Source of the DNA: a bacterium
GTDB taxonomy: Bacteria > RBG-13-61-14 > DATKZS01
Direction: 5' to 3'
Length of the DNA: 64,000 nucleotides
Assembly: GCA_963674965.2 (NCBI GenBank)
Contig: CAXXFL010000001.1
Coordinates: forward strand, 1,344,001 to 1,408,000
The notes under the pieces are model-generated. The model had not been told where the DNA came from and ran no database searches. It saw only the letters and a list, made by a program, of their open reading frames with translations. Below, piece after piece: positions 3,147 through 4,554 of the stretch. The position numbers and the translations under genes were made by a program. Position 1 is the stretch's first letter. The number at the start of each line of letters is the position of its first letter.

Positions 3147-3298
3147 TGACCATGAATATTTACGGGAAGACTCGCCAGAGAAGGCGCTCGGAACTGGCGA
3201 ACCGGCTGGGCGACAGCCTTTTGATCGAACCCGATCCCCCCACAATCCCTCAACGGATTGCTATCGGCGATAAAAACGCAACAAATTCAGATAATTAT
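3147..3298 (+). pseudogene. 3' remnant of a related tyrosine integrase gene, inverted relative to the intact one
   Basis: Reads TMNIYGKTRQRRRSELANRLGDSLLIEPDPPTIPQRIAIG. Collinear and gapless with the intact Int C-terminus TMNVYGKTRRKRRSELTDRVGDALLNGPDTGTIPERKAVG, including the catalytic Tyr. No upstream integrase sequence seen. Confidence 0.85.
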
Positions 3299-4554
3299 AT
3301 GGTGGAGCCGAAGGGAGTCGAACCCTCGGCCTTGCTACCGTAACCACTTGATATATCTATATTTACCATCCCAACGGCTTTCCGTTCCGGGATTGTTCCG
3401 GTATCCGGCCCGTTAAGCAGGGCGTCGCCGACGCGGTCGGTAAGCTCCGAGCGCCTTTTACGGCGGGTCTTTCCGTACACGTTCATGGTCAAGTTGGGCG
3501 TCGAATGCCGCGCAAGCTCTTGGGCCTCTTTGACGTTCGCTCCCTCCTCGATTATGAAGGTTATATACGCCACCCGGCAAGCGTGAAAGTCTATCTTGCC
3601 CTCGGGCGTCCACTTGGGTATTCCGGCCTTTTTCAAGTCGTAATCCATCCGCCGGGTTAAATGGGAAGGAATCCTCAATAGCGGCTCGTCCGGTCCCTTG
3701 TCCCTTACCGATTCAATGAGGGCGTCCATAACGGACCGGGGAACGGGCTGAATGCCGGGTTTCCTGTTCTTGGTTATATCGGCCCTAAGATTTATGCCGC
3801 AAAAGTCCTCGTTCAGGTCGGATACCGTGAGCGCCCTAAGCTCTCCGGCCCTAAGCCCGGTCGTGAGGGCGACGGCGTACAGGAGACGCCTGTATTCGGG
3901 AGCGGCTTTCAATAGTCTTTGAATCTCATCACGCGTCATGGCCCGCCGCGTGGTCCGGGGCGTCGCGTCGAACGAGTCCAGGTCTTTAAGCGGCTCGGTA
4001 TCGAGGTATCCGCGAGACACGGCCCAGCGGGTAAAACCTTTAAGCGCCTCGGAATAGTTCATGAGCGTTTTTCCCGTCCGGCCCTTTTCCTGAAGCTCCC
4101 GCAAAGCGGTTTCGGCTTTCGTCAGTATCCCGTCCAGGTCCGCCAGCGTTTCCAAGCCGAGCCGGTCACGCCACCACTTAAGCCGGGAGCGCTTCAATCC
4201 GGCGTGTACCTTACTCCAAGGACGCCCGCCGCGTCCGCCTTGAGACTCTCCCCATTCGCAATATTCGGCCATGACTTCCTTGACCGGGCGCGACGCGTGC
4301 TTGCTCGCGCTCGTTGGCGGGGGCCGGTATCCTTTCCTTATCTCGTCTTGTTCGGCCTGGACGCGGGCGGCCAGCTTTTCCGTCTCGCGTCTAGTGGTCC
4401 CGCCCGTCCCGTTTTTCCGCCGTCCTTGCCAGTCAACATACTCGAAACGCCAGCGGTCGTGATAAACCTTGTTCCCTTTCGAGTCCAGGACGGGGACGCG
4501 CTTTCCGGTTTCCGGGTCGGTCTTGGTTTTCTCGGTTTGATAGACGTATGGCAT
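3295..4554 (-). CDS. int: Site-specific tyrosine recombinase/integrase
   Basis: Catalytic motifs TGLRAGEL (R), KNRK (K), FHACR (HxxR), RHS (H), NVYGK (Y). ATG 4554 has a GGGAG RBS; TTG 4611 is an alternative start. The frame runs through the att repeat to a stop at 3295. Confidence 0.95.
   Translation of the reverse strand: MPYVYQTEKTKTDPETGKRVPVLDSKGNKVYHDRWRFEYVDWQGRRKNGTGGTTRRETEKLAARVQAEQDEIRKGYRPPPTSASKHASRPVKEVMAEYCEWGESQGGRGGRPWSKVHAGLKRSRLKWWRDRLGLETLADLDGILTKAETALRELQEKGRTGKTLMNYSEALKGFTRWAVSRGYLDTEPLKDLDSFDATPRTTRRAMTRDEIQRLLKAAPEYRRLLYAVALTTGLRAGELRALTVSDLNEDFCGINLRADITKNRKPGIQPVPRSVMDALIESVRDKGPDEPLLRIPSHLTRRMDYDLKKAGIPKWTPEGKIDFHACRVAYITFIIEEGANVKEAQELARHSTPNLTMNVYGKTRRKRRSELTDRVGDALLNGPDTGTIPERKAVGMVNIDISSGYGSKAEGSTPFGSTI
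3299..3332 (-). repeat. att site: 34-bp duplication of the tRNA-Ala 3' end
   Basis: atggtggagccgaagggagtcgaaccctcggcct is identical to 9701-9734. Confidence 0.97.
3382..3401 (+). repeat. Putative integrase arm-type site (copy 1)
   Basis: ccgttccgggattgttccgg is identical to 9522-9541 and built from tandem gttccgggatt-like 11-mers near each att end. Confidence 0.65.

Follow-up and report, generated by a model that had tools for sequence, protein, structure and literature searches.

How do the ends of two tyrosine integrase genes come to face each other across a single T-loop, without a gap between them? The question is raised by a stretch of 64,000 nt (here called the window) from a bacterium of the lineage RBG-13-61-14 (assembly GCA_963674965.2, contig CAXXFL010000001.1, positions 1,344,001 to 1,408,000), in which positions 3147-3491 form an imperfect palindrome of 345 bp. 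Its centre lies in a displaced fragment of a tRNA-Ala(GGC) gene, and each arm carries coding sequence for an integrase C-terminus. An original prediction, made from the sequence alone, held that two related integrases had met the same tRNA T-loop there from opposite directions. We conclude with good confidence that the palindrome marks where two related integrative elements meet, both of which used the same tRNA-Ala(GGC) T-arm, one with the attachment (att) site in the polarity opposite to that of the other; the first reading was largely right, its assignment of the polarities aside. The features on which the argument turns are as follows, in window coordinates.

3147..3298, plus strand: remnant of a second tyrosine integrase gene, int0, of which the final 50 codons are left (starting at 3149)
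3295..4611, minus strand: int1, tyrosine integrase (PF00589, E = 4.4e-13)
3299..3332, minus strand: displaced 3' fragment of tRNA-Ala(GGC), comprising the base past CCA, the acceptor 3' strand, the T-arm and 5 nt of the variable loop
3316..3322, minus strand: T-loop heptamer, TTCGACT on the tRNA strand; palindrome centre and probable crossover segment
3299-9734: island E1, 6.4 kb, its ends being the two copies of a 34-nt repeat
9702..9777, minus strand: intact tRNA-Ala(GGC) gene (ARAGORN, Rfam)

The explanation that we prefer is that E1 integrated in the tRNA gene and left int1 at its tRNA-distal end, reading in the tRNA sense into the displaced 34-nt fragment. The int0 element would have abutted the tRNA 3' end in the usual convergent arrangement and would later have been deleted to a stub of 50 codons. 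The T-loop lies at an equal distance from the catalytic-tyrosine box in both polarity classes (167 nt here), so that the gene ends mirror each other gaplessly about the centre of the T-loop.

The palindrome and its two coding arms

Bases 3147-3315 and the reverse complement of 3323-3491 are identical at 104 of 169 positions (61.5%) in a gapless alignment, and a repeat search delimited arms of 111 nt (3147-3257 and 3381-3491) that are 72% complementary. In the next 14 segments of 30 nt outward of the arms just 4-12 of 30 bases match, and homology therefore ends sharply at 3147 and 3491. When the mirror score over 169 nt was calculated for 9029 centres in the window (mean 43.8, standard deviation 6.9), the value of 104 was the maximum (z = 8.7). 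Both arms encode TMN(I/V)YGKTR... and share 29 of 50 residues, and a six-frame search of the whole genome with int1 recovered the left arm at E = 4e-12. The two observations from which the original prediction had set out, a diverged integrase C-terminus in the left arm and gapless symmetry about base 3319, are both borne out by these figures.

At base 3319 lies the midpoint of AGTCGAA (3316-3322). This heptamer is the T-loop of the tRNA-Ala(GGC) fragment as read on the antisense strand, and the intact gene at 9702-9777 has an identical T-loop. In each arm 50 codons counted from TMN are followed by 17 nt up to the heptamer, a distance of 167 nt from the T of TMN to the loop. This spacing had been described as running from TMN to the tyrosine; the distance holds, but the tyrosine in question is the last aligned residue, whereas the catalytic one stands within TMNxY. 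The inner part of each arm (about 32 nt, the last 10 codons) is poorly alike, with 3 of 10 residues identical, and the gapless register at the centre is therefore deduced from the outer 120 nt.

The manner in which the arms differ is that of coding sequence. Over the first 40 codons, identity at the three codon positions is 0.75, 0.82 and 0.50, and the Nei-Gojobori ratio of non-synonymous to synonymous divergence (dN/dS) is 0.20, rising to 0.32 over all 50 codons, with dS at about 1.2. Conservation of the first two positions together with these ratios indicates that the arms diverged as two working genes under selection at the protein level, and divergence of this type argues against a recent fold-back copy.

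Island E1 and its integrase

The only tRNA gene that ARAGORN finds in the window is tRNA-Ala(GGC) at 9702-9777 on the minus strand, in agreement with Rfam (66 bits). Its 3' end is duplicated as a perfect direct repeat of 34 nt (3299-3332 and 9701-9734, 100% identical), the latter copy consisting of the 3' 33 nt of the intact gene and one flanking base; the repeat starts one base beyond CCA and reaches 10 nt to the 5' side of the T-loop. The block of identity spans the T-arm and reaches the tRNA 3' end, as in integration of the T-loop sublocation. A small integrative element, E1 occupies the T-arm region of the tRNA-Ala(GGC) gene; int1 stands at the tRNA-distal end of the element, and the int1 frame runs in the tRNA sense through the displaced fragment. 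Rfam also returned tmRNA and permuted-tmRNA matches on the minus strand at 3300-3412 and 3225-3328 with scores of 21.9 and 27.1 bits, below the gathering score of 47; they are accounted for by the tRNA fragment with its T-arm and acceptor, and we do not regard them as a gene.

Int1 matches PF00589 over residues 224-381 with 49.8 bits (cut-off 27.1; E = 4.4e-13). Residues R254, K281, H343, R346, H369 and Y379 are invariant in 12 family members, and we take them to fill the catalytic roles of R, K, H-x-x-R, H and the tyrosine nucleophile; the catalytic tyrosine, invariant Y379, is the Y of TMNxY. The protein is likely to start at the ATG located 19 codons into the 3295-4611 frame, because the database form (P0002) has 419 aa. 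The int1 stop lies 2 nt past the repeat, within the int0 remnant.

The int0 remnant

int0 reads antisense toward the tRNA 3' end, and its open frame continues through the fragment to 3343. Its 50 codons are homologous to int1 residues 371-433, and of the features of a PF00589 integrase it has just these last codons, from TMNIY on. No homology is found upstream of 3147; int0 is therefore a gene fragment and not an integrase. The 17 nt that follow its last aligned codon, up to the T-loop, do not mirror the right arm: they equal 9701-9717 and are the tRNA 3' end proper, and int0 reads this end as MVE..G.EP, exactly 50 codons after TMN. The same 50 codons, the same frame and the same M-V start occur in L012 at tRNA-Ala(cgc) and in L019 at tRNA-Val, and the 50-codon spacing is found likewise in L017 at tRNA-Glu. 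Among 120 family tails that of int1 is the closest to int0 (52.5% over 59 aa).

The first proposal, that a sister element in the opposite orientation had sat at the same site, against the same tRNA end, is supported. The qualification 'older' has to be dropped, since either order of insertion gives the present arrangement.

Polarity in the source genome and its phylum

The phylum of the source genome comprises 13 genomes, and tallies based on its kin are therefore small. In the source genome itself int1 has four more intact-looking paralogues as well as broken copies (L006, with an in-frame stop, and shorter fragments). One of its integrases, L005, converges on the intact tmRNA (transfer-messenger RNA) gene and reads antisense through the 3' end of that gene. 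Seven more integrases in the 12 other genomes adjoin intact tRNA or tmRNA genes and are all convergent, so that the integrases beside such intact genes in the source genome and its relatives are convergent in 8 of 8 cases. Sense reading into a fragment is seen in four integrases: int1, L002 and L004 from the same genome, and L018 in a relative. To judge from these counts, the geometry of int0 is the commoner, convergent type of the family and it is the intact E1 that carries the rarer one, the reverse of what the original prediction had implied.

Both polarities are combined at the tmRNA locus, where three islands form an array of about 135 kb downstream of the tmRNA gene, ssrA (C6:247225-382408). 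Direct ssrA 3' fragments lie at C6:310264, 271861 and 247225, two of them ending in TTT and not CCA. A convergent integrase stands beside ssrA, and two sense-type integrases occupy distal island ends. Since L005 (antisense, at intact ssrA) and L002 and L004 (sense, at ssrA fragments) fall in one clade with a support of 99, the flip of polarity is verified here from DNA.

Two further loci of this genome attracted our attention. L003 (P0059; C6:877901-879157) is a full-length paralogue with the 50-codon tail spacing, but its tail runs into sequence without a recognisable T-arm, and no tRNA gene lies within 40 kb; it may have targeted a secondary site or one outside tRNA genes. At C4:126303-126401, about 10 kb from the broken paralogue L006 (one in-frame TAG), ARAGORN reports a tRNA-Lys(ttt) of the unusual length of 99 nt.

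Polarity across the family

A protein search returned 591 homologues at E <= 1e-20, and the best 120 of the 591 were examined. The reading frames run through the tRNA block, and polarity is therefore visible in the peptide: by peptide pattern, 55 of 121 rows (int1 occurring twice) are antisense and 34 sense, with 32 left without a class. At the DNA level, 80 metagenome loci were scored with a loose T-arm pattern, a stricter detector having missed many sites.

Antisense: 38 of 80 loci, 19 of them running into an intact gene by ARAGORN, all on the opposite strand
Sense: 18 of 80 loci, 0 into an intact gene
Unclassified: 24 of 80 loci, 4 of them for lack of sequence

An intact gene for the antisense type and a fragment for the sense type is the asymmetry that the two geometries predict. 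Tabulating the orientation of the homologues relative to the tRNA in this way, as had been suggested along with an alignment of the two arms, shows both polarities to be common; the alignment likewise gave support to the original proposal.

In a quick maximum-likelihood tree built from 125 integrase cores that end before the tail, polarity has to change 20 times (mean with shuffled labels, 28.6), and 7 of the changes are forced by branches with a Shimodaira-Hasegawa-like approximate likelihood ratio test (SH-aLRT) value of at least 95. A tree from the tails alone (46 residues) gives 19 changes and makes int0 and int1 sisters (SH-aLRT 95). Shuffling of tail modules at the TMN box, in place of true flips, was considered and appears unlikely because polarity is equally scattered on the tail and core trees (19 and 20 changes). 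With both classes scattered in this way, the suggestion that the family changes polarity stands, and our best estimate on the integrase tree is about 20 changes, with at least 7. Loop offsets fall in the same classes of 164, 167, 176 and 192 nt for both polarities. A search of genome contigs with int1 brought up distant Acidobacteriota integrases alone (22-34% identity).

The crossover, attP and the arm sites

Among 18 sense-type fragments there are 10, and among 19 non-intact antisense sites 7, in which identity to the tRNA stops 2-4 nt to the 5' side of the loop; indirectly, this places the exchange in the loop or 3' of it. The T-loop sublocation that Williams is said to have described in 2002 is in line with such an exchange. 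For E1 itself the crossover is bounded by the 34-nt repeat, which is less than the location of the core that had been claimed for it; comparison within the family makes a point in or beside the T-loop the likeliest. The flip had been tentatively attributed to inversion of the overlap heptamer. Polarity does flip; what is inverted between the two types is the whole tRNA-derived block, at least 34 nt here, and not the heptamer alone.

The free form of the element can be modelled from the two ends of E1. An open reading frame (ORF) at 9307-9762 on the minus strand and the end of int1 share a frame and encode the same peptide over the repeat, and in the excised circle int1 would therefore run 130 codons further (9699-9310). 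The motif with which this extension ends is also the one that closes the C-termini of long family members, whichever their polarity (P0005, sense, E = 3e-6; P0012, antisense, E = 1e-6). It recurs in 5 of 80 metagenome loci, in three of which tRNA identity stops just past the loop, as a free attP (the site in the excised form) predicts. We hypothesize that the int frame crosses attP and that integration shortens Int1 by about 130 residues, the long form being presumably expressed. The sequences concerned are listed here with those of the candidate arm sites.

9310..9699, minus strand: predicted C-terminal part of Int1 in the excised attP form (130 codons, int1 frame across the core)
3382..3401, unstranded: 20-nt exact repeat, copy 1, in the int1 tail, about 50 nt from the core
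9522..9541, unstranded: 20-nt exact repeat, copy 2, in the other att arm, about 160 nt from the core
3237..3256, unstranded: int0 mirror counterpart of the 20-nt site (15/20 when reverse-complemented, compared by eye)

The two copies of the 20-nt repeat are read in different frames, which argues for a role at the level of DNA, and they look like arm-type Int-binding sites. The ssrA island with int5 has a comparable pair of 19 nt on both arms; two other islands searched for such arm repeats had none, and Pfam calls no arm-binding domain in int1. The idea that the retained part of int0 doubles as an att arm is favoured by the candidate site at 3237-3256, while the retention itself may be a matter of chance. 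The core of the 20-nt repeat also recurs, inverted and incomplete, at 9338-9352, some 350 nt from the att core in that arm of E1 which is proximal to the tRNA gene.

Alternative explanations

Several points weigh against the junction of two elements as we have described it. A search for longer proteins that used int0's 64 residues as query brought up no full-length relative of it, and the explanation does not account for the way in which the remnant breaks off sharply on its left, right at the conserved TMN box. A tRNA-Ala(GGC) site that was empty or occupied by the int0 element (E0) was not recovered in 5 relatives, in which synteny is not kept; with the sigma-factor gene as anchor, the 4-5 kb downstream of it in these 5 relatives held no tRNA gene, no match to the membrane-protein ORF and no match to int0. 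The polarity of the 120 database proteins rests on peptide patterns, with at least one false call (P0059, called antisense and set to unknown), 31 of 125 tree rows are unclassified, and the trees are quick searches rather than careful ones. Lastly, the 34-nt repeat is crossed by neither a read nor a contig, the Logan contigs ending within it, and linkage across the repeat therefore rests on the assembly.

This last point bears on the idea of a chance similarity or of an artefact such as a fold-back chimera, since long-read chimeras can create palindromes and no spanning read was seen. Fold-back chimeras are near-perfect, however, and the arms here differ at 38% of bases, on which ground we exclude an assembly artefact. 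Logan contigs from runs X1 and X2 (coded as one sample, S1, and so independent neither of each other nor of the source assembly) match the window over 2600-3328 and 3299-4100 without a single difference, and the architecture recurs at two metagenome loci described below. With the mirror score and the protein-level match added to this, chance or artefact is scarcely credible. Contig depth in the two runs was 23.1 for E1 against 17.5 for the host flank in one and 16 against 15 in the other; some E1 copies could be extra-chromosomal. A contig of 294 nt has the core attached, with one mismatch, to another left flank, and may represent another tRNA gene, strain or organism.

A more substantial alternative is that an inverted duplication or a gene conversion across the hairpin of the T-arm produced the left arm in place as a copy of int1, or homogenized the two, and that the arm then decayed. 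The exact mirror register about the T-loop and the place of int1 as the closest tail to int0, and its sister on the tail tree, would also fit a past gene conversion, and the region is predicted to form a long hairpin in single-stranded DNA (-80.6 kcal/mol, z -7.65). Moreover, such events do happen at junctions of this kind, to judge from one of the two sense-type metagenome loci, among 18, that have a convergent integrase remnant just past the fragment. In that locus (L109:1950-2620) the arms mirror each other gaplessly about the T-loop centre with 71% identity over 300 nt and carry the same frameshift in the TMN box, which requires copying between the arms; the convergent copy has in addition an internal deletion of about 50 codons, and both integrase genes look dead. 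In the second locus, L060, the two genes resemble each other less, and their offsets of 176 and 188 nt put them 12 nt out of register, showing that unrelated pairs also meet tail to tail. The left arm differs from a copied dead gene in that third positions are near saturation and dN/dS is 0.2-0.3, as between two working genes; its inner 17 nt are the tRNA 3' end itself; and independent convergent integrases at other tRNAs have the same frame and the same spacing. We consider copying in place improbable as the origin of the left arm. The exact mirror in the window thus reflects the family's conserved spacing together with either close kinship of int0 and int1 or an old conversion. Inversion mediated by Int between direct cores, integration in the wrong orientation and an inverted circular dimer were set aside by reasoning alone, each predicting another inner sequence.

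Might the remnant have been kept for a function, either as part or decoy of the right-hand att site of E1 with an effect on excision, or as an expressed protein? The mirror position at 3237-3256 retains 15 of 20 bases of the repeat that flanks the E1 core on both arms, the sharp end of homology leaves the tail and core alone, and an ATG-started ORF of 84 codons (3089-3343) covers the remnant. That ORF has no family match, however, the pattern of a retained remnant is known from this one locus, and the convergent remnants of L109 and L060 are far longer (about 200 and 300 codons), so that no fixed retained unit is seen. Retention for function is in our opinion very improbable, and the junction of two elements of opposite att polarity remains the explanation that we prefer.

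Other genes of E1

Between int1 and the tRNA gene the following E1 genes were annotated by profile matches (HTH, helix-turn-helix).

4608..4943, minus strand: small HTH protein adjoining int1 (weak MerR/HTH_17 matches, all under Pfam cut-offs)
5043..6851, minus strand: primase-helicase-like replication protein, with an N-terminal RepB_primase part and AAA_25/DnaB_C
7136-7912 and 7916-8137, minus strand: two HTH proteins

The protein adjoining int1 is a possible excisionase or regulator.

Relation to known systems

E1 resembles the elements of T-loop-sublocation integrases in that its identity block, from the T-arm to the tRNA 3' end, restores the gene, in the displaced 3' fragment that marks the far end of the island, and in the several tRNA identities and tmRNA that are targeted within the int1 family. 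It is unlike them in that the family has both orientations of the tRNA block relative to int, often interchanged. The Islander paper names three subsites within tRNA genes (PMC4383910), and Panis et al. (2010) give the convergent shape, OC, as one of two common arrangements of integrase and tRNA (PMC2951348). int0 and the 8 and 19 antisense-type integrases beside intact genes have this OC shape. The sense type falls outside the four shapes of that survey, because the survey scored only integrases adjacent to intact tRNA genes. In the literature searched, through parts of papers and with Williams (2002) and Zhao & Williams (2002) outside its scope, we found no description of frequent att-core reversal within the int frame that keeps the spacing.

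The integrase genes of phage Mx8 and of SSV extend across attP (PMC4383910, citing Tojo et al., 1996, for Mx8). Like that of the Myxococcus phage Mx8 IntP, the att core of E1 appears to lie in the 3' part of the int frame, with the C-terminus being exchanged. In the work on IntP from 1996 by Tojo and colleagues, this replacement of the C-terminus on integration reportedly shortened the protein, as predicted here for Int1, and had a regulatory consequence. Int1 would work like Mx8 IntP, by analogy rather than by shown membership: in a tblastn search of 50,697 phage records with int1 at E <= 1e-8, Mx8 was not among the 9 records matched, and the phage matches were Thermus and Thomasclavelia phage integrases only (24-29% identity). 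Integrase genes of the SSV type are cut near the N-terminal part and lose function on integration. Unlike them, int1 would exchange just the part after the catalytic tyrosine, while sharing with these archaeal integrases an attP within the int ORF and a gene that is split on integration (PMC8371274, PMC7253208).

As in tandem arrays of islands (Islander, PMC4383910; the ssrA islands of Dehalococcoides, PMC3146451), one site has been reused and displaced fragments lie in direct orientation. What sets the present case apart from such arrays is that the islands have int genes of opposite polarity, which lie tail to tail and give an imperfect palindrome.

Significance

Integration into tRNA genes by tyrosine integrases is textbook knowledge and adjacent islands are common, so the locus itself is ordinary. 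Less ordinary is a single family that uses the same T-arm both ways and switches frequently while the distance from the catalytic box and the open frame are kept. We put forward tentatively, and a little short of believing it, a more general proposal: that the att core within the int frame has been turned often (at least 7 times, perhaps about 20, among 94 classified members), always about the T-loop and with spacing and open frame preserved, the quasi-palindromic T-arm leaving evolution free to switch att polarity. On this view imperfect palindromes of the tail-to-tail kind, 3147-3491 among them, would be footprints of this process and maybe substrates for recombination, and copying between arms, as seen in L109, could move tails or cores between elements.

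The family counsels caution toward island-finding programs that assume an integrase adjoining the intact tRNA gene, and it would add a widespread example, from uncultured lineages, of an integrase whose C-terminus changes on integration. If the proposal is true, the orientation in which T-loop integrases integrate would depend on a small block that can be inverted, rather than on the remainder of attP; this would bear on the evolution of new att sites and on the design of integrases with a chosen polarity of insertion.

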